Origin: an uncultured archaeon
GTDB taxonomy: Archaea; Asgardarchaeota; Thorarchaeia; Thorarchaeales; Thorarchaeaceae
NCBI GenBank assembly: GCA_964473825.1
Contig: CAYYQL010000010.1
Coordinates: 1-64,000, forward strand
Direction of reading: 5' to 3'
Length of the DNA stretch: 64,000 bases
The position numbers were made by a program, and so were the translations under genes. Of this stretch, positions 8,571 to 64,000 are shown piece after piece (position 1 is the first letter of the stretch; each line of letters opens with the position of its first letter). The notes under the pieces are model-generated. The model had not been told where the DNA came from. It did no database searches and worked only from the letters and a program-made list of their open reading frames with translations.

Positions 8571-11500
8571 ATGTTGAAAGCACGAGGCGCGTCAAAACGA
8601 GTCGAGAGTCTGGCAAGAGCACGGTTCTTCTCCGGATTGCTCCCGACGGCTGCTATGGGCATTGCAGTAGGCCTTCTGGGCCTTGCACCCGCCCTCTGGG
8701 ATACGTCTGTCATGACCGGACTCTTTCGGTTGTCTGGCAAGTGGGTATCTGGAGCACATCTCATGAGGCCTATCATGCCGAGATACACGCTCCTAACGGC
8801 TCTGCTGTTTCTGTCAACCTTGATGTTTGAAAGCAGCTTTGAACTAGTTCTGGATTCTCTGGTCGCATTCCAGCAAGTTCTTGCATCTGTGGCGGTGGGA
8901 ACTGGATTCGTGTTCTTCCCATTCTACGTACACAGCAAGCATTCGATTCTGGCGGCTTCGAAGAACACCACAGAAAGGAGCATACTCCAACGAGTTGGCA
9001 AGGCACTTGCATCTCTCATCGGGCGAAGCAAGAAGGTATTTGGAGGTGTGGAGGTGACGCAGATACCCAGCACGTACATGACGGACGGTGACACAAGGGA
9101 GGAGGCGATCCATCGTGCCGAGATGTTCTATCAGATAATCAGGGCTGTGCGGATGAGCGGTATCCCATTCGGATTCATGTTGAAGCGGAGCATAGGGAAA
9201 CTCCGTCTCATCTATCTCACCTATGCTGAGGACACATCCGAACTACGAAACAGAGTCTGGAAGCTTCAGAACATACTGTCAAGTTCTCTCAAGGGGTTTA
9301 CTCTGACAACGCACAACGAGTTTGTCATTGAAGAGCAAAATCCACGAGATGCTGAGGTCACTGCCTACCTCGACGGTCCGCTTGCTCCCATCCAGGTCGG
9401 CCAAGAGGCGGCCGATGGACTGACCATTGCTATCGGATACCTCAGAAGCATTGGGGCAGGATCCATCCAAGTCTTGATTGAGCCAGCGCGTCCGTCACGG
9501 TGGAAACTCAATGGTCTGAAACGGGACTTTGAGTACGCGACAGGCCGCGCATCAAGGACGGTCTCGCATACGGGTGGCGGCATCCTTCGACAGAACAATC
9601 ACGAATCCGTTACCTTCACAGACATTGATGCATCCAACGAGGCGAGAGACCTGGCCATGCAGATAAGGCGCCAAGAGGCAACTGATGCCTGTAAGGCGTC
9701 GATCTCTGTGACATGTGAGGGATATACCCGTAGTGTTGCAGAGCAGTGTGCAAAGGATATACTGGCGGCAATCATGGGGCGCGTTCGACCCTCCTCTGAT
9801 CGCACTGGACTGTCAATCAAGACCAAGAAGAGTAACAACACTCTCAGGGCACTGACAAATGGCAGGCAACCTCCCAATTGGACCCTCATGGTTCCTGAGG
9901 AGATTGTTCCTGTTATGGTCATCCCACCCATTGATCTCGGCCTTGAGGTGGTCAATCGTGCACGATTCGTAACAGGCAAGACTCAGTCTGGCGAGCACCC
10001 ACCAGCGGAGACCCCGCGGCGCAGAAGCACACCCCCTCAACGGACAGGCAAGTTCAGTCTGGGCTCGGAGCTTGATGAGTCAGGGGCTAAGGTGGGACCC
10101 GTTCACTTCGCGCTTGAAGACATGGTTCGCCATGTGGAGGTATTCGGTGATACTGGGAGCGGTAAGACGTCCACTGTCAAGCGAATACTCAGTTCTGTTC
10201 ACGAGTCCAAGATACCGTTTCTTGTCTTGACCCCCACCCTAACTGATGACTATGTTTCTCTTGCCCGCGAGATCCCCTCATTGCGCTTCTTCACTCCCGG
10301 CGATGAGCGGACGGCTCCGCTACGGTTCAACCCTCATGAATTCTCGGAGGGAGTGTTGGTGAATACCATCCTAGCTGATGTCAAGGCGGCCTACATCGCC
10401 TCTGCACCAAGTATTGGAATCGTGAGGGAGTACACGGAGATGTGCATAGACAATAGTTTCGAACGATGTCAGTATGACCGTAATCACAACGCTCACGGAC
10501 ATGCCGTCCTTATGTCTGACCTCCTTGATTCCGTCGCTCACCTCGAACGTGATGTTCTTGAATACAGTGACAGGCAGAACCAAGACCTCATTGGTGCACT
10601 CCGGGGCAGATTCCGGTCGTTAATGAGTGGCCCACTCTACCGGGTATTCAACACGTTGACTGGCATGACTGTTGAGGAACTGGTCTCGGTTCCAACCGTC
10701 ATAGCATTGGATGGTCTAAGCGCAGATGAGCGGGCACTCTTTGCTTCACTCCTCGTCGTCAATGTGGCTCGGTACTTCCAGGCAAAAGCTCTGGAGATGA
10801 CAGCGGCGAAACCTCTGCGATTCCTGCTCGTATTGGAGGAGGCACATCACTTTCTTGTTCGAACTGGTGAGCGATCGGTGGATGAGGAGCACGCAGCCCG
10901 AAGCCATGCCATCCGTTCCATTGTGGAGGTACTGCGCGAGTCGCGTCGTAATGGTTTGGGGGTTGTGATCTTAGATCAACTTCCCTCCAGTCTTGACGAA
11001 CACGCCATGAGCCTTCCGGTCACCACCATCTTACATCGTCTGTCTACAGGTGTAGACCGGAGAACGATAGCGATGAAACTTGACCTCAACGAGGAGCAGC
11101 TGAAGATGGTCGGTTCTCTCCCTGTGGGACATGCTATTGCCAAGTTCGCAGGTGATGGGCAACCCATGTACATTTCGGTGCATCCTCCTCCAAAGAGAGC
11201 ACCCGTCGGGGCAGGGACGAAAACCAGTCTGAGAGACTGGGTACGAGAGCGCATGACGCAGGTCTACAAGGAGCACCCGGCAATCAGTGCAGGGCTCAGC
11301 AATCCCTTCGTGTTTCTTGAGGCCTCGGAATCCCCCACCGGTGCATCAGTCGAGATTGACCTCAGAGTAGCATGGAATGTAGTGGGTTTTGCTCGTTCCG
11401 ATTTTCTCGTAAACAACTACATGGCTTTCCTCAGAAGGGAGAAAATAATACTGTTGACCAAGCTAGCCGAACTGCTCTGGATTGTTCTTGAACGCATTAC

Positions 11501-42048: not shown

Positions 42049-43524
42049 ATGGGAAGAATGGAGCTGGTCCAGAAAGCAAGAGAACGACTGCGGGAGTACT
42101 GGTTACTCCTCTTTGTTCTCGTCGTGGGATGTATAGTCTGGTGGATCGTCTTCGACAGTGCATGCTCCACCTTTGGAGGTATCCGCCCCTATCAGGCTGT
42201 TTGGAATGGTGCCGGAGAGTTTCCGATCTTCGGTTATACAATCAAGTACAATTTTGAGGGATGGGCGGACTATGACTACTACTACATTAGCTGGGCCGAT
42301 CAGTTCCTCGATGGTTATCTTCCCTATACGGATGCTTTCAACCACCCGATTATAGATGGCACGGAGTATCACACTCCCTACTTCTTTCCTCCGCTCTATG
42401 TCTACCTCTGCGCGTTCGGAAGGTTGCTTCCCGTTCAACCCTGCGGTATTGGGCTGGTCATCACAGTCTTTGGCTTCCTGACAGCGTTTCCTATATACGG
42501 TATTGCTGAGTATCTATCCTCGAATCGCCGGGTGGCGGCCATATCAGTTGCCACCTACTTGTTGAACCCGCTCACGCTTTACTATGTTGCATTCGAGTGG
42601 CTGAACCCTGCTCCCTTTGTCTTCTTCTCCCTGCTCGGTTTCTTCCTGTTGATGCGAAAGAAACGGATTCCGGGGGTCTTGGCCATTGTCATGGCCGCTC
42701 TCTTGAAGCAGACTGCTTTTTTCTTCGGGCTTCCTCTGGTCGCCTATATCTTGAAGCGTGCTCCAGAAGAATCACCCCTACAGGACGAGACGTATGACGG
42801 GCGACCTCCAGGTGATGAACTGGATCTTGTGGGGTTTGGGAAGATAGCGCTTATGGTGATTGTCTTTGTCGGAGCAGTCTCTCTTCCTTATCTCCCGGAT
42901 ATCGGCAACTACTTTGAGTACATCTTCCAGCGTGCCGGAGCTACTCTCCTCCAAGACCTCACAGTCGTGCCGGCAAGTAACAGTCCAATCACACTGGCCG
43001 TTCCTTTCATAGCCCTAGAATTTCCTCCGTGGTTCATCCAGGGCATCAATCTGGTATCTTACTACTCGGTAGGTCTTGTGGCTGGTGTGATTCCTCTTCT
43101 CGCCTTGATGATGTTGAAAGAGAAGGATGACAGAACCCTAAGAGAATACTGGAGAACCATCTTCTATCTGACGCTCTTGCTGGTTCTATGGTTGCATATC
43201 TGGTCTCCCAGAGGTATCTACAAGTACTACACTGTGGCAATACTTCCATTCATCACTATACTGTCCTCCTCACGTATGTGCTCAGCGCGAACGGAGCCTG
43301 TTTCAATATCCCCCAGTATGGTGATCTTACCAATTGGTTGGAGTTTCTTAATTGTCCTCGCTGACCGTAACATCTACATCATCTATTTGGTCCTTACACT
43401 ACTGCTCTATCTTCTGTATAGAGTGGGAATTGGAAGGATCGTTTCCCGCTTACGAAGTGTGTTCTCACAACGGGTCATGTTGGTGCGTAGAGGGCTTGAA
43501 AGGCAGTCGGCTCTAGGTGGTTAG
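42049..43524 (+). CDS. GT-C fold glycosyltransferase, tandem paralog
   Basis: EGWADY...PY...YFFPP, WLNPAPF, KQTA and PRGIYKYY are shared with the upstream gene. Confidence 0.75.
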   Translation: MGRMELVQKARERLREYWLLLFVLVVGCIVWWIVFDSACSTFGGIRPYQAVWNGAGEFPIFGYTIKYNFEGWADYDYYYISWADQFLDGYLPYTDAFNHPIIDGTEYHTPYFFPPLYVYLCAFGRLLPVQPCGIGLVITVFGFLTAFPIYGIAEYLSSNRRVAAISVATYLLNPLTLYYVAFEWLNPAPFVFFSLLGFFLLMRKKRIPGVLAIVMAALLKQTAFFFGLPLVAYILKRAPEESPLQDETYDGRPPGDELDLVGFGKIALMVIVFVGAVSLPYLPDIGNYFEYIFQRAGATLLQDLTVVPASNSPITLAVPFIALEFPPWFIQGINLVSYYSVGLVAGVIPLLALMMLKEKDDRTLREYWRTIFYLTLLLVLWLHIWSPRGIYKYYTVAILPFITILSSSRMCSARTEPVSISPSMVILPIGWSFLIVLADRNIYIIYLVLTLLLYLLYRVGIGRIVSRLRSVFSQRVMLVRRGLERQSALGG

Positions 43525-44718
43525 TGTTCGGAGTTCATCCCTTTTCCCATCGAGCCTTTTTTCGAGCCTCTCCAGACGCGCTTCAAGTTTCTTGGATTGC
43601 TCCTCGTAGGTTTCTCTGGATATGGCTCCCGATTCATGTCTCTGAGCGACGTGATCTCGAAGCTGTGTCACCGACTTGACTTCTTTCTCAAGGGCCGATA
43701 TATCCCCCTCTAGATCAGCCACGATGTTCTCCTCTTCTGTCTTGAATTGTTTCGCAGGAATGATGAGACCGAGCTGATCTTGTGTCTTCTCTGCAAAGCT
43801 CTGGAATTGTTCCCGAAGGCGCGCGATGCTGGTGTCAGTGCCATCTATCTTCTCTTCGAGCCCTCTGATGTCTTTCTGGAGGTCGAAGACCGCATTGACC
43901 AGTCTCTTCATGGTCTTGTCTAGCTCTCCCTGAACGACCTCAGCAGTTTCTGAGTCCTCTCCCGCTTCGGTGGAACCAGATCTCTTCTCTTTCTCCTTCA
44001 TCAGTCGTTCATCTCCACAGAGCCATCTGAATGCACTAAGCGCGAATTTTCTATTTCCGTCGCCCTTCATCCCTCCTCCTCGTCTGAACACCTCATAGCT
44101 GCCCACGCAGACTACTCTGCCCTTCCCCTTCTCTGCAACTGCAATCACAGGTTGAGCTGGGGGATCTGCGGTAGCCGATGTAGTTCCCACAACTTTGGCC
44201 TTCCCTGATGTTTTCAATGTGCAGGCTGATGGAAGCAATAGACTGTCAACTCCCTCGGTAATGGGGTGGCCCTCAAAATCGGCAATGATTGGCATTGTGG
44301 GTAAGCCTGCATTCATTCGTTCATCTTTGACTGCTGTATTCTCGAACGTGATTCCAAAATTCTCCGAAAGCCTACTCAAGTTGTTCATGAGTCCCTTATC
44401 TCCGCCAGAGAGAGCCAGTAACATGAGACCCCCGCCGCCTTCGACATACGCCTTGAGCGCACCAATCTCATTGGCCCGTAGTTTCGAGCTGTTGGGGCAG
44501 CCAAAGACTATAGCGTCAGCATTCTCTATCTTGTTCTTGAGAATCATGAACTCAGTGTAGGCTTCCACATCATAGTCGTTGTCCTCCAGGAGGTGTGCCA
44601 ACTCAGAGTAAGTTGAATCGATTTTCCCTCTTTCATTCTGCGTTTGGTCGAAAAATACTTGCTTTCTTCGGCTCACTGAAGGCCCACCTGATGCAATCGT
44701 CGATTCATGGTGTGTCAA
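43513..44718 (-). CDS. GIFT (GldG/IFT52) domain protein with C-terminal coiled coil
   Basis: FFDQTQNE, IVFGCP, EIGALKAYVEGGGGL, FGITFENTAV, GRVVCVGS, NRKFALSAFRWL; no signal peptide. Confidence 0.75.
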   Translation of the reverse strand: MTHHESTIASGGPSVSRRKQVFFDQTQNERGKIDSTYSELAHLLEDNDYDVEAYTEFMILKNKIENADAIVFGCPNSSKLRANEIGALKAYVEGGGGLMLLALSGGDKGLMNNLSRLSENFGITFENTAVKDERMNAGLPTMPIIADFEGHPITEGVDSLLLPSACTLKTSGKAKVVGTTSATADPPAQPVIAVAEKGKGRVVCVGSYEVFRRGGGMKGDGNRKFALSAFRWLCGDERLMKEKEKRSGSTEAGEDSETAEVVQGELDKTMKRLVNAVFDLQKDIRGLEEKIDGTDTSIARLREQFQSFAEKTQDQLGLIIPAKQFKTEEENIVADLEGDISALEKEVKSVTQLRDHVAQRHESGAISRETYEEQSKKLEARLERLEKRLDGKRDELRTLTT

Positions 44719-58074: not shown

Positions 58075-58833
58075 ATGGATGATCATGTTGAATCTGAGCT
58101 CTACGCGTCGATAGCCACGCTGGATCAGTTCAAGAAGATGTTCGACATGGGCGCTGTGGATGTTCGTTCCTACGAGCGCGAATCAGAGGCTCTTGTCATG
58201 GATATCCGAGAGAATCTTGATAGATTGCGTCGGATGGGCAGAGATGTAACCGGATTCTTTGAGAGTGAGGGCATTGTTTCCCGTTTTCCCGAAGCCGCAG
58301 GAGTGCTTCGAATTCTACCACAACAGTCTGCTGCTTCCATGCAGGGGATGACGTCGGATGAATACTATGACTACATTGGTCTGGCGGTGCTTGACGTTGC
58401 AACTGAGAACGCAACAAAGGGTCTTATGGGTTTGGCAGAGCTGATTGTGGACGTTGTACGACGAACCCCCGAACTCAAATCCGTCAGCTATAATGATGTG
58501 ATAGAGGCAGTGGATCGAGTTGCAGAGCACGGTCTCATTCCAGGAATTCGAACACTAAGCGGAGGCGTCAAAGTTGTTGAATTGAGGCCTTTGGAACTTC
58601 GGCAAGACCAGGCTGATGTCATCAATCTCGCAGCGTCCAAAGGATTTGTTTCTATTGAGGAAGTAATCATGAAGCTGAAATGGTCTGAAGACCACGCTCG
58701 AACCGTCCTCTCAAGCCTTGTGGAGGCAGGCATGGCTGTGGCCGACATCCGATTCAGCACGGGGGGAAGATACTACTTTCCCGGCCTAAGATCAAGGACA
58801 GATGTTGACTCGAATGGCAAGCATAACCGCTAG
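58075..58833 (+). CDS. ESCRT protein: Vps28-N-like domain fused to a Vps22/36 (EAP30) domain
   Basis: N-terminal ELYASIATLDQFKKMFDMGAVDVRSYE. C-terminal DEYYDYIG...GLMGLAEL...VSYNDVIEAV...LKWSEDHARTVLSSLVEAGMAVAD...YYFPG. Confidence 0.8.
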   Translation: MDDHVESELYASIATLDQFKKMFDMGAVDVRSYERESEALVMDIRENLDRLRRMGRDVTGFFESEGIVSRFPEAAGVLRILPQQSAASMQGMTSDEYYDYIGLAVLDVATENATKGLMGLAELIVDVVRRTPELKSVSYNDVIEAVDRVAEHGLIPGIRTLSGGVKVVELRPLELRQDQADVINLAASKGFVSIEEVIMKLKWSEDHARTVLSSLVEAGMAVADIRFSTGGRYYFPGLRSRTDVDSNGKHNR

Positions 58834-58837
58834 CCTG

Positions 58838-59542
58838 TCATACGACCAGCACAACAGCGCCGCGTTCCTTGTCTACCCATCTCGCATAACCACGTTCTAC
58901 AAGCAGTTCCATGATACGGCGAAGGTCGCCCTCCGGGAGGCGTCCGAAACCTTCTCTACCCTGTTGGATGACAATCGACTTAACATCAAGATGCATCAAG
59001 CCCGTTTCAAGTGCCCAACGGTAGATATGGTCAGCCCAGTCCTCCAAAGGTCGCCAGTAGACCCGAAGCTGACGCTTCTCATCTCCGATCCACTGTGCTA
59101 TGTTCTTTTCTACAAGGGTATCTCCAAGGATCTCAAACGCATCAGCCTTACCGACAATCCCGCTAAACGGACTCTCGGTTATGAAAGTCGTAATCGATAT
59201 GACGTGAAGCTTCTGGCTCTCCATCCATGTGAGTATGAAGTCTGTCCAATCTCGTGCCCAGAGTTGTATGCCCTCTTCGTAATCTGGAACCTGATACATC
59301 CACTCCGCCTCTTCGGCATTCCCCCAGCGCGGCTGGATCTCCTCGGCTTCAATTGCAGTCTCTCGTGATACAGCAGCCTCTTCTTCGGACTCTGTGACGG
59401 TCACAGCTTCTTTTACACTGACTTCGGGTACGTGTTGATCCGTAGAAGTCTTGGTCACGATTTGCTCTTCTGACTCTTCTTCCGACTCGCGCTTCTTCTC
59501 GACGTTCTTCTCCTTCTCTTTTGATCTCTCACGAACATTCAT
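58838..59542 (-). CDS. vps25: ESCRT-II Vps25
   Basis: WxxDWTDFIL, VYWRPLEDWADHIYRW, LLVERGYA. Confidence 0.88.
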   Translation of the reverse strand: MNVRERSKEKEKNVEKKRESEEESEEQIVTKTSTDQHVPEVSVKEAVTVTESEEEAAVSRETAIEAEEIQPRWGNAEEAEWMYQVPDYEEGIQLWARDWTDFILTWMESQKLHVISITTFITESPFSGIVGKADAFEILGDTLVEKNIAQWIGDEKRQLRVYWRPLEDWADHIYRWALETGLMHLDVKSIVIQQGREGFGRLPEGDLRRIMELLVERGYARWVDKERGAVVLVV

Positions 59543-59545
59543 CAG

Positions 59546-60754
59546 CTACGAGCCCTCCGCCCAGTCTATATATCGCTTGACATCTTCGGGCGACGTTGCA
59601 GGTCTGATATTCTCGATAGCTGATAAGAAGTCATAGCGCTCAACAGGTCTCAAGTCGAATATTTCCGACTCTTCATCCAAACGTCCACTTGTTTGAAGTT
59701 CTCGAATCGGCTCCATTGCCGCCTCTCGGCACACAACACTGATGTCCCGTCCACTGTATCCCTCTGTCAGGTCAGCCAACTCCGCGAAGTCTACGCTGGG
59801 GGCTATCTCTATCTCCTCCATATGAATATTGAATATCTTCTTTCGAGCCTCGCCACCTGGCAATGGCACATGGATTCTTTTCTCAAATCTTGACCGCAGA
59901 GCAAAGTCGAGCTCCCAAGGAAGGTTTGTGGCTCCGATCACTGTGATTCTCTCGTCCTCGCGACTACCAAGGCCCTGTAACTCGGTCAGCAGCTGCGTCT
60001 TCAGACGCCTTTCACCTCCAACATCATCACCGGACCTGGAAACTCCTATAGAATCGAGCTCATCGATGAATATTATAGCGGGTGGATGCTTTCGTGCCAG
60101 TTCGAAGAGAGTCATTACCAGTCGTTCTGATTCGCCGAGCCACTTGCTTACTATATTGCCGGCTGACACATTGAAGAATGTCGCGTCAATCTCTGAGGCC
60201 ACGGCCTTTGCTATGAGTGTTTTACCACATCCCGCAGGACCATAAAGCAAGATGCCTCTCCAGGGTTGTCTCGCCTTTCCACGGAAAAGCTCGGGATGCT
60301 TCATGGGCGCAAGAATCGCGTCATCAATTGCCTGCTTTGCATCCTCGAGATCTGCGACCTCTGACATTCTAACATCTGGGCGCTCCGAAACTATTGTATC
60401 TTCTATCATATCTCGCAGTCTGACGGTATCCTCGTCAATCTCTTTCTCTTCGGCAGAGACTTGAGCAGGCACTGGCTCTTCTCTCTCAAGGGGGTCTGGT
60501 GGTGTTTCGAGTCCATGGACAGGTCCTGACTTCTTCTTGATGCCGGAGAGATACCGGACCCTGTCAACGCACTCTTGTGCTCTCTTGAGATAGTGTTTCC
60601 TGATAGAGGGCAATGCTGCCGAGTTTGACAGTTTAATCAGCACCTTGCTGGCCTTTAGATAATACTGGCAGGCCTCCTTTCCCATCCCTCTCTTGTCTAG
60701 GTCTATAGCCTTGTCAAGTAGCGCTTTGAGACCCTGATCTATTCTATCCACCAT
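59546..60754 (-). CDS. vps4: Vps4 AAA+ ATPase with MIT domain
   Basis: MIT domain (KAIDLD...YLKRA); PWRGILLYGPAGCGKT, SKWLGESE, IDELD, ATNLPWELD, RFEKRI. Confidence 0.93.
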   Translation of the reverse strand: MVDRIDQGLKALLDKAIDLDKRGMGKEACQYYLKASKVLIKLSNSAALPSIRKHYLKRAQECVDRVRYLSGIKKKSGPVHGLETPPDPLEREEPVPAQVSAEEKEIDEDTVRLRDMIEDTIVSERPDVRMSEVADLEDAKQAIDDAILAPMKHPELFRGKARQPWRGILLYGPAGCGKTLIAKAVASEIDATFFNVSAGNIVSKWLGESERLVMTLFELARKHPPAIIFIDELDSIGVSRSGDDVGGERRLKTQLLTELQGLGSREDERITVIGATNLPWELDFALRSRFEKRIHVPLPGGEARKKIFNIHMEEIEIAPSVDFAELADLTEGYSGRDISVVCREAAMEPIRELQTSGRLDEESEIFDLRPVERYDFLSAIENIRPATSPEDVKRYIDWAEGS

Positions 60755-60914: not shown

Positions 60915-61529
60915 TTGGGTCCAATTCGAAAGGCTTTCAGATGGGGCAAAAAACGCCCAGATGTCGGTGAAGTTTCAAGTCAGCTTCGGGTTCTGTCAAA
61001 ACAGCTGGCGCGAGAACGCAACAAACTCGAGAAAGAAGCTCGTGATACTAGGGCTCGAGCTGTACGTGCCAGGAAGGAGGGCAGGATTGACGCGTACAAG
61101 ACCTATGCCGCTGAGATGGTCCGGTTCCGACGCTTCGCTCTCTCTGTGGACAAGTCCCGTCTTCAAATCCTGAAGATCTTGGCCTATATCACTCGAGCGC
61201 AGACCACAGCCAAGGCTAATGTTGCACTGGAGAAAGTCGCTGACATCCTGGGGCTCTTAGGTGACACCACGGACACACTGAAGGTCGTGGAGAATGTGGA
61301 TGAGATTGGTCGTCGGTTGGAGCAGTTTGAGATAGAGTCCAGCATGTCGACAGAAGCCCTCGACACGACTGAGATTGGTGAAGTCACTTCAGAAGAGCTC
61401 GCTACGGCCATGGCCGAGATAGATGCAGAAGCGGGTGCATCCACATCTCGCGCGAAAAAGGCTCCTATGACAGAATCTGAAGAACTAGAGGCTGAGATCA
61501 AATCACTGGAACAAGAACTAGGTGTCTAG
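60915..61529 (+). CDS. ESCRT-III, Vps2/24/46 class
   Basis: Basic N-terminal helices aligning with CHMP1-3, an acidic C-terminus, and a MIM1-like EELEAEIKSL. Confidence 0.85.
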   Translation: MGPIRKAFRWGKKRPDVGEVSSQLRVLSKQLARERNKLEKEARDTRARAVRARKEGRIDAYKTYAAEMVRFRRFALSVDKSRLQILKILAYITRAQTTAKANVALEKVADILGLLGDTTDTLKVVENVDEIGRRLEQFEIESSMSTEALDTTEIGEVTSEELATAMAEIDAEAGASTSRAKKAPMTESEELEAEIKSLEQELGV

Positions 61530-61530
61530 C

Positions 61531-63081
61531 TCACCAGGAAGAATCAGATCTCTGCTTCATGGCCTCATACATTTCTTTCCGAGTTCTGTAGGAGTCGAGC
61601 ATTAGACTCCTGTATCTTCTCACGAAATCTTCAGGGACAAGCCGTCGATTCCTAAATAGGTCCACGGTTCGCGAAACTGCCTGCTGCAAGTCTCTGGCAT
61701 CTCTTTTGAGGTGCTGTATCTGGGGGTCGGCACCTCCGAGTCGGTCTTCACGTCCGAGAGATGCTCGAGAGAGGACGTCCTCAAGGTGGTCGGTGAAATG
61801 CTGAGCTCCATACTTGTCCATGGTGCCATAGCCTGCTGCAGGGCGTTTCTGATAGTGATATCTCTCATTCATAGTGAGGTTTTCTGCGCGTTTCCGATTG
61901 CCTGAAGACAAGAGTGAATACACAAGTTCTTCTATCTTGAGACGTACGTCACTGATATTGAAACTCGACTGTTCAATGCGCCTCACCCGCTGCATATCCG
62001 TCTGCATGTATCTATCGAACTTCTTTGCTATCTCTAGATAGTCTGGAAGAACCTCCTCGGTCTGCTCGTCACAGGATATCTTTAGGTCTCCCTGTTTCAT
62101 CTTGAGAACGAGGCGCTTTCTGATCCTCCCGTCCTCCTCCATGGAGTTGAGATAGACGAGGGGGAAATCGAAGAGGACTTCCATCTTCTTTCGAAAAGTT
62201 CCCACTTCGGCTATGAACACAATTCTCTTGTTCGTTATATAGAGTGTCCCCGTTGCCTTGTCGTGCTTAAGGAAATCGCTACCTGTAACTCGAATCTCGG
62301 GCAATGCGCAGACAGGGAGTTCATTGACAGACAGTTCAGCGTGTTCGTAGAATCCCGCAAATTCCTTACGATAGTAGTCAAGGCCCTCAAGCTGGGTTGT
62401 CGATTCGTCTAGTCGAACAACGCAGTCATCCAACGCATCATCAACACCAGACTTGAAATGCTCTCCCAGTTCTCCAATTCGGTTTGCAACACCCTCAATA
62501 AACGGAAACTGATCGGGGGTCCAGCCATTGGGGTCGATTATTCCCTTGGTCTCGGCAGCCATCTGACGTCCGACCATATCTGCTTGGTTGACAACTCTCT
62601 TTTTCACGGCCAATGCTTCATCTTGGATTCTCTCGATATTGTCTTCAATCCAGTGATAATGGAGAAAATTGGCCATTCTCAATGAAACCAGTAGCCTCTT
62701 CGAGGCAGTAAGCTTGCTGTTGAACTCCCTCAACTTGAGATGACCATACTGGAGTGACATAATGGACTCTCGCAGCTTCTTTCCAAGGTTCCTTCTCTTG
62801 TCAGCTATAGCGACTATCTTGGAGGAGTGACATCGGGGGCAGATCTCTTCTATTCTTTTCCCAATGCTCAGTTCTTCACACTCGCATTCGGGGCACTTTT
62901 CGAAGGGCCCCCCGGCCTCTGGAGTTCCTAGAGTATGATGGCACTCTGAACAGACATAGTACTCCGTGGTCTTACTCTCAAGACAATCCAGACAGAAGTT
63001 CTCGCCGCAGTCTTCGCACATGTGAGTTGCCGTGATTCTCTCGCAAACTCTGCATTTTCTGTGGGAGCTGCCTACCTTCAA
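61531..63081 (-). CDS. B-box/Zn-finger, coiled-coil, GRAM(PH)-like and steadiness-box-like protein
   Basis: CRVC...CEDC...CLDC; three further CxxC pairs; GTLYITNKRIVF; C-terminal DLFRNRRLVPEDFVRRYRSL. Confidence 0.7.
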   Translation of the reverse strand: MKVGSSHRKCRVCERITATHMCEDCGENFCLDCLESKTTEYYVCSECHHTLGTPEAGGPFEKCPECECEELSIGKRIEEICPRCHSSKIVAIADKRRNLGKKLRESIMSLQYGHLKLREFNSKLTASKRLLVSLRMANFLHYHWIEDNIERIQDEALAVKKRVVNQADMVGRQMAAETKGIIDPNGWTPDQFPFIEGVANRIGELGEHFKSGVDDALDDCVVRLDESTTQLEGLDYYRKEFAGFYEHAELSVNELPVCALPEIRVTGSDFLKHDKATGTLYITNKRIVFIAEVGTFRKKMEVLFDFPLVYLNSMEEDGRIRKRLVLKMKQGDLKISCDEQTEEVLPDYLEIAKKFDRYMQTDMQRVRRIEQSSFNISDVRLKIEELVYSLLSSGNRKRAENLTMNERYHYQKRPAAGYGTMDKYGAQHFTDHLEDVLSRASLGREDRLGGADPQIQHLKRDARDLQQAVSRTVDLFRNRRLVPEDFVRRYRSLMLDSYRTRKEMYEAMKQRSDSSW

Positions 63082-63258: not shown

Positions 63259-64000
63259 ATGGAAGACCTTGCGCAAGCTGCTATTGAGGGTGCCCTCAAC
63301 AACGGGGCGTCGTTTGCCGATGTTCGTATCGAGAATACTGTGACCACAGTCATTGAGATCTCTGATGGCATAACAAGAAAGGCCCTTGCATCGCGACTGA
63401 AGGGGGCAGGAATACGAGCTTTTGTTGACGGCGCATGGGCGTTCGCCCAGGCCACCAATCTCACTGCGAAGAGTCTGAGAGAAACAGGTGAGTCGGTGGC
63501 GCGGCTGGCAATGGCAACCACGGACCATGTTGCAGACCGCTTTACCATTGATGGGCCTACTTTCACGGACCGAGTCACACTTAACGTTCGTAAGCCCTTT
63601 GAAGACATTCCAATAGAGGATAAGATGGACTTTGTGAAGCGGATTGACAAACAAGCCCTAGACTTTGACAATCGGATTGTAAACTCACGAACAATCTATG
63701 GTGATTTGTCTTCGAGCATCTTTGTGGCCAACTCCTTAGGAACTAGTGTACATTTCGAGAATTCTCTTCCTCGGATAGTATCTGCACCGACAGCAAAGGA
63801 GGGAAGCAATCGGCAACGAGCTCATAAATCGGTCGGGATTCGTGGCGGGTATGAGGCAATGGAGAGTGAGGCCGCTCAAACGGTTGGAACACGCGCCGCA
63901 AGACAGGTGATTGACCTTCTTTCATCCGTTGCAGCAAAGGGCGATACCTACGATGTCGTTTTGGACCCCGTCTTGAATGGTGTTATGGTGCACGAAGCCT
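63259..64000 (+). CDS. tldD: TldD/PmbA family metalloprotease (3' truncated by the window edge)
   Basis: MEDLAQAAIEGALNNGASFADVRIE...GAGIRAFVDGAWAF...VLDPVLNGVMVHEA. Confidence 0.88.
   Translation, partial: MEDLAQAAIEGALNNGASFADVRIENTVTTVIEISDGITRKALASRLKGAGIRAFVDGAWAFAQATNLTAKSLRETGESVARLAMATTDHVADRFTIDGPTFTDRVTLNVRKPFEDIPIEDKMDFVKRIDKQALDFDNRIVNSRTIYGDLSSSIFVANSLGTSVHFENSLPRIVSAPTAKEGSNRQRAHKSVGIRGGYEAMESEAAQTVGTRAARQVIDLLSSVAAKGDTYDVVLDPVLNGVMVHEA

Follow-up and report, generated by a model that had tools for sequence, protein, structure and literature searches.

A Thorarchaeial member of the Znr_CC_PH_SB family and its modelled pairing with a Vps28N-Vps22 fusion

A described family and its Thorarchaeial locus

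The closest described system is the Asgard Znr_CC_PH_SB family (Makarova et al. 2024, mBio; PMC10936438), which combines three zinc ribbons, a PH domain, a coiled coil and a steadiness box and is found in an ESCRT neighbourhood. It has been proposed there as what is likely to be the ancestral ESCRT-I of Asgards, its PH domain being membrane-associated. The same study lists the N-terminus of the Thorarchaeote Vps22 as Vps28-N at 99%. One Thorarchaeote protein, ThorAB25_08990, has been used in two-hybrid tests, where it was called a freestanding steadiness box (SB) and the Vps28N-Vps22 fusion was labelled 'Vps22'; ubiquitin was noted there as missing in Thorarchaeota (Hatano et al. 2022, Nat Commun; PMC9192718). 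The Loki and Thor SB proteins are said there to be possible interactors of Vps28, but the Thorarchaeote two-hybrid set consists of six proteins with no separate Vps28, and the published SB-Vps28 interaction is therefore ambiguous for Thor. Loki- and Thorarchaeia have also been reported to have no UEV-Vps23 (Lu et al., bioRxiv 10.1101/2023.07.25.550441).

We analysed a 64,000-nucleotide stretch of DNA (the window), which is contig 10 of a 3.27 Mb Thorarchaeial genome that is 95.7% complete. An earlier note on the same DNA had described one of its genes as encoding a TRIM-like protein that abuts ESCRT-III, and had suggested that together with a Vps28N-Vps22/36 fusion it forms an ESCRT-I/II recruited by a PH domain rather than by ubiquitin. 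The cluster comprises the following genes.

58075..58833, plus strand: Vps28N-Vps22 fusion, 252 aa (Vps28 hairpin, aa ~3-85, and EAP30 winged-helix pair), the predicted partner
58838..59542, minus strand: Vps25 (ESCRT-II), by Pfam
59546..60754, minus strand: Vps4 (MIT, AAA and Vps4_C), by Pfam
60915..61529, plus strand: ESCRT-III (Snf7 E=4.7e-8), matching ThorAB25_09000 (called ESCRT3A)
61531..63081, minus strand: Znr_CC_PH_SB gene (asCOG cog.011556), 516 aa, TTG start, from the ORF and its homologues

The ORF at 63081..61531 ends in the tail motif quoted in the earlier note, is present as a single copy in the source genome and has 169 homologues (48-93% identity among the 120 matches listed, the named ones being nearly all from Thorarchaeota), and we regard it as a real, conserved gene. 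Its product is an already described Thorarchaeia member of the Znr_CC_PH_SB family (cog.011556; PMC10936438): it shares the three zinc sites, the helical region followed by a PH domain and the C-terminal steadiness box, with nothing different in kind. The assignment rests on this architecture, on gene order and on orthology to ThorAB25_08990. The homologue at locus L067 lies in the order target-MetE-ESCRT-III with a spacing of 1166 bp, as against about 1160 bp in a listed cog.011556 gene. ThorAB25_08990 (listed as 'SB' in Suppl. Data 1 of PMC9192718) is the direct orthologue of our protein and belongs to the same five-gene cluster (08990-09030); the homologues P0076 and P0093, which are 53-54% identical to the target, have exactly its start motif and its tail.

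The published ThorAB25_08990 sequence begins at the equivalent of M21, as do many database copies, and thereby omits the conserved pair C10 and C13 (window 63022-63081, minus strand). Without these two cysteines the published sequence probably has an incomplete first zinc site, and the alignment places the true start upstream of M21.

The gene abuts ESCRT-III as the earlier note had said, the two stop codons being separated by 1 bp; since the genes lie tail-to-tail on opposite strands, they are not co-transcribed. A convergent ESCRT-III gene was found within 200 bp at 44/44 Thorarchaeia loci (37 genomes) and at 19/26 loci of other lineages, with ESCRT-III lying within 2.5 kb at 4 further non-Thorarchaeia loci. 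Synteny with ESCRT thus holds across every Thorarchaeia locus surveyed. The conserved neighbour is ESCRT-III, not Vps28 or Vps22, and this, like the opposite strands of the two genes, counts against the docking on the fusion described below. A scan for promoters and terminators gave a result at chance level. On the other side of the gene, a TldD/PmbA pair (window 63259-63999, plus strand) is divergent from it in 14/14 wide Thorarchaeia loci; the pair is probably not ESCRT-related, because it was not detected at the loci of other lineages.

The novelty implied by the earlier note does not survive this comparison: the family is published (PMC10936438) and is present beside ubiquitin and UEV-Vps23 in other Asgards, and the proposal is a published hypothesis rebuilt from sequence. 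The locus carries little weight as a discovery, since earlier publications cover the family and the cluster as well as the Vps28N-Vps22 fusion and the missing ubiquitin of Thorarchaeia; what is added here to the published account is a modelled three-helix bundle, a GRAM/GLUE-type PH domain, a Vps23-type hairpin and a larger census.

The C-terminal hairpin and its predicted partner

The C-terminal part of the protein, which the earlier note had likened to the Vps23/Vps37 headpiece, consists of two segments.

61732..61884, minus strand: poorly conserved, low-confidence linker, aa 400-450 (alignment and model)
61543..61725, minus strand: Vps23-type steadiness-box helical hairpin, aa 453-513, with a predicted contact face at aa 473-502

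Single-sequence Pfam and PDB searches with the target alone returned nothing significant for a steadiness box, and profiles were needed. A family profile of the hairpin matched yeast Vps23 (E=8.9e-8), TSG101 (E=3.3e-5) and the hairpins of Asgard UEV-Vps23 (about 1e-9). Among 69 homologues, Vps23_core was found in 35 (best 3.1e-7) and Mod_r in 7 (best 1.1e-4). These profile matches support the steadiness-box identity of the tail, and the Vps23 type is preferred over Vps37/Mod_r. Likeness of fold is unspecific here, ribophorin, integrase and Smc hairpins scoring like Vps23. Compared with Vps23/TSG101 and Asgard UEV-Vps23 (PF09454; PDB 2F66, 2P22, 6VME), the target has a homologous C-terminal hairpin with a predicted Vps28-N pairing; it differs in having no UEV domain, in adding zinc and PH modules and in carrying a disordered linker where a coiled-coil stalk directly precedes the Vps23 hairpin.

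The hairpin is also homologous to the N-terminal hairpin of the neighbouring Vps28N-Vps22 fusion (hhalign 94%). The pairing proposed in the earlier note was modelled as a complex of the hairpin with aa 3-88 of the fusion, both given as alignments, and scored 0.84 against 0.01 for the best control; the mark used is reached by 58/80 solved complexes and by 2/110 mismatched pairs. The runs shared at least 95% of contacts, with a partner pLDDT of at least 84, and the modelled contact face (aa 473-502) is the motif that the earlier note had quoted. Interface columns were more conserved than the remainder (0.55 versus 0.40 and 0.71 versus 0.50). The model thus favours an interaction between the tail and the Vps28-N portion of the fusion; because the Vps23-Vps28 headpiece is already solved, a pass of this kind shows likeness, not binding, and may reflect resemblance to that structure. 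A full-length match to Vps28N-Vps22 was confined to the target's own order, Vps28 and Vps22 matching as separate adjacent genes elsewhere. In genome G152, the fusion gene is in three pieces (L060:4934-5697), from frameshifts or sequencing error.

Two other proteins of the source genome end in a similar hairpin and could be real or competing partners of the fusion. One is a 401-aa protein (window 43513-44718, minus strand) with an IFT52 GIFT domain (E=1.1e-15) followed by a coiled coil, whose tail matches the UEV-Vps23 stalk and hairpin (E=5.9e-5), making it a second candidate partner. The other is an ABC-transporter ATPase (L072:4381-5271, equivalent to G000:C14:59380-60270, plus strand) that ends in a hairpin resembling a steadiness box (E about 0.003-0.01); its gene adjoins an ABC permease-like gene.

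We considered the possibility that the protein acts like CdvA: it would serve as a membrane anchor, self-assemble by means of its hairpin and bring in the neighbouring ESCRT-III directly, bypassing ESCRT-II. The convergent ESCRT-III gene at 44/44 Thorarchaeia and 19/26 other loci would fit such a role, as would the fold of the hairpin, which resembles CdvA (Z10.1), and the CdvA Pfam matches in 4/69 homologues. However, unrelated helical hairpins equal CdvA in fold score, and the sequence profile prefers Vps23 (E 9e-8) over CdvA (E 0.15). Furthermore, a Vps28 hairpin has been kept in the Thor fusion though no UEV-Vps23 was found, and it needs a partner. We therefore consider a CdvA-like role unlikely, and docking on the Vps28-type hairpin remains the reading that we favour.

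Zinc module, helical bundle and PH domain

The protein was modelled with AlphaFold2 from a 106-sequence alignment (pLDDT 87); its N-terminal and central parts comprise three units.

62827..63054, minus strand: zinc module, aa 10-85, with 12 conserved Cys (alignment, model and Pfam)
62359..62808, minus strand: bundle of three antiparallel helices, aa 92-241, corresponding to the 'coiled coil' (model; generic fold matches only)
62008..62355, minus strand: PH domain of GRAM/GLUE type, aa 243-358 (fold and conserved K275, R286, K298, R319, R321 and K322)

Each of the 12 cysteines (C10, 13, 22, 25, 30, 33, 44, 47, 63, 66, 81 and 84) is 99-100% conserved in the homologue alignment. They probably form three Cys4 sites, the pairing that we infer being that of a B-box/FYVE-like finger into which a zinc ribbon is inserted. 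In the model, strands 35-44 and 71-80 probably pair as a long hairpin; this would place C44/47 and C63/66 in the inserted ribbon, with C81/84 completing the B-box/FYVE-like finger. The zf-B_box family was matched by 46/69 homologues (best E=2.6e-6), the terminal B-box His pair being absent, and DZR matches were found too; zf-C3HC4_3 gave below-threshold matches in 7/69 homologues. The zinc ribbons of the earlier note are borne out and its B-box-like finger is probable; in place of its coiled coil, the model has a bundle of three helices. This bundle and the PH domain have pLDDT mostly >90. A fold search with aa 5-245 returned generic three-helix bundles only, with BAR, ALIX-V and Atg17 level with designed bundles at Z 8-10, and these tied matches neither support nor oppose a BAR reading of the bundle.

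The PH domain is better seen by fold than by sequence family. Pfam matches of the target alone to PH/GRAM were weak (E 0.07-0.08), and among 39 homologues bPH_3 was matched by 27, GRAM by 19 and Vps36 by 17. The model matched the MTMR2 GRAM domain (Z12.6, rmsd 2.5, 106 aligned), Lam6 (Z11.8) and the EAP45 GLUE domain (Z11.1), in agreement with the GRAM/PH-like domain reported in the earlier note. Compared with Vps36/EAP45 GLUE and GRAM domains (PF11605, PF02893; PDB 2DX5, 2CAY, 1LW3), it is of the same PH subtype by fold (Z 9.8-12.6), at a level that does not tell GRAM, GLUE and bacterial PH apart. Unlike Vps36/EAP45, the target has no winged helices (there is no EAP30 match, and the model ends in a two-helix hairpin), and its zinc fingers precede the PH domain and are not inserted in it. 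The net charge of the PH core was positive in 24/25 diverse members. Given a basic GRAM/GLUE-like domain, the ligand would most likely be an anionic membrane lipid, and recruitment would pass through this domain. Against this reading, the ligands of PH folds are proteins as often as they are lipids.

The TRIM-like label of the earlier note raises the idea of a ubiquitin or Ubl ligase or reader, whose zinc module would be an E3 or bind a small modifier (ubiquitin elsewhere, a SAMP/ThiS-type protein here). The target does resemble TRIM/RBCC proteins in having cysteines spaced as in a B-box ahead of a helical region; the B-box Pfam matches, weak RING/FYVE-type structure matches (RNF4 E=8e-5), and the presence of ThiF and ThiS/MoaD-like genes in the genome agree with this idea, and ubiquitin is bound by the zinc fingers of yeast Vps36 and by EAP45 GLUE. 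The likeness is nevertheless superficial. In Pfam, the target protein has no RING match above cut-off; its zinc sites are all-Cys without the B-box His pair, its helical part is an intramolecular three-helix bundle in the monomer model and not the single long helix of TRIM type, and no E2 was found in its genome. Full conservation of the zinc cysteines in a lineage that gave no ubiquitin match also speaks against the idea. A ligase or modifier reader is accordingly very improbable, and an ESCRT-I adaptor is still the better reading of the protein.

Ubiquitin and the distribution of the gene

The earlier note had found no ubiquitin, E1, E2 or E3 gene in the window, and the whole-genome search extends this: no match to ubiquitin, E2, UEV, RING_2 or Vps28-C was obtained in the source genome (95.7% complete), positive controls for ubiquitin, UEV and E2 being found in other Asgards. 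Outside the window, the genome does contain one ThiF/E1-like gene and six matches of ThiS/MoaD type. The Pfam families VPS28 and Vps23_core gave no match in a six-frame genome scan though both hairpins are present, so that these are weak negatives.

In a single-protein census, the gene was found in 172/251 Asgard genomes, and more were found with a profile; the genomes are a related sample, and the counts are descriptive. The target's own family, f1, has the gene in 57/59 genomes and neither ubiquitin (0/59) nor UEV (0/59), in line with the lack of both for which the earlier note had suggested a check. By comparison, family f9 has the gene in 50/54 genomes, ubiquitin in 53/54 and a UEV Pfam match in 0/54, and the gene co-occurs with UEV in families f15, f16, f19, f21, f27 and f28. 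In genome G029, the gene, E2, ubiquitin, UEV-Vps23, Vps28 and Vps22 all lie within 17 kb. Altogether, 113 genomes outside the target's own order carry the gene. Its apparent absence from f5 and others in the single-protein census was dropped, as the profile search found divergent near-full-length members in f5, f14, f18 and f8; families f3, f13, f17, f20 and f22 gave hairpin- or zinc-level matches only, the full gene not being found in those searched.

We regard the gene as ancestral in Asgard on this distribution. Other Asgard lineages have it alongside ubiquitin, E2, UEV-Vps23 and a full Vps28, and so it was not recruited to replace ubiquitin; the change in Thorarchaeia is a loss of ubiquitin, UEV and Vps28-C together with the Vps28N-Vps22 fusion. 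The strong form of the earlier note, in which the protein replaced UEV-Vps23 in Thorarchaeia after ubiquitin was lost, agrees with the f1 counts, with full-length Vps28N-Vps22 matches only in the target's own order and with family f9, in which the gene is frequent and no UEV Pfam match was obtained, but it is the least credible of the readings, and as the origin of the gene it is refuted by the census (113 carriers outside the order; f9 with ubiquitin; six families with UEV; G029). What stands of the rewired, ubiquitin-free ESCRT-I/II is the lack of ubiquitin and UEV in the lineage and the modelled Vps28-N pairing.

Taken together, these data make it probable that the protein is an ancestral Asgard ESCRT-I adaptor that would sit with its hairpin on a Vps28-type hairpin and with its PH domain at the membrane, and that would work free of ubiquitin in Thorarchaeia. 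Homology of the hairpins suggests that they form an ESCRT-I headpiece, the docking itself being modelled. A free Vps28 would be the partner in most Asgards. In Thorarchaeia the sole Vps28 hairpin detected forms one protein with the winged helices of Vps22, and the hairpin of the adaptor would thereby tie the adaptor straight to ESCRT-II, from which Vps25 would bring ESCRT-III and Vps4, following the known ESCRT order. The flexible linker would suspend the headpiece from a rigid zinc/bundle/PH unit, of which the basic GRAM/GLUE-like PH domain would hold the adaptor at an anionic membrane and the zinc module may pick a protein cargo or partner. With the Vps28-C link removed by the fusion, and with no ubiquitin match, the path in Thorarchaeia would be ubiquitin-free; such working is plausible, and it would stem from the loss of ubiquitin, not from a new gene.

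A bolder version is doubtful. Here, Znr_CC_PH_SB would be an old ubiquitin-independent membrane entry into ESCRT beside the UEV route, forming in Thorarchaeia the core of a ubiquitin-free ESCRT-I/II/III in which a single Vps28N-Vps22 hub serves several hairpin-tailed adaptors; the PH domain of the family would also be the source of the eukaryotic Vps36 GLUE. The locus is well suited to experiment: with six proteins from Thorarchaeia, a ubiquitin-free ESCRT pathway could be reconstituted, which would test whether ESCRT-I first reached membranes via a PH domain. The published orthologue construct is probably missing half a zinc site, which a repeat should mend.

Further ESCRT-related genes were observed. 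A second ESCRT-III gene lies away from the cluster (L073:4299-5024, equivalent to G000:C4:90298-91023, plus strand) and resembles ThorAB25_07240 (ESCRT3B). A 770-aa protein (L074:4463-6775, equivalent to G000:C4:133462-135774, plus strand) has a coiled coil, an Ig-like domain and a C-terminal EAP30 winged-helix pair, and long proteins like it are present in many Thorarchaeia. Two f21 homologues (L044:8526-10340 and L045:8901-10703, in genomes G044 and G053; P0121 and P0123) keep the zinc-bundle-PH part, an EAP30 winged-helix pair (E=1.8e-11) replacing the hairpin. Their domain order is Vps36-like, and a local fusion seems likelier than a Vps36 ancestor because the winged helices are nearer eukaryotic Vps22 (E 5e-6) than Vps36 (3e-3) and the search gave no more than 3 relatives.
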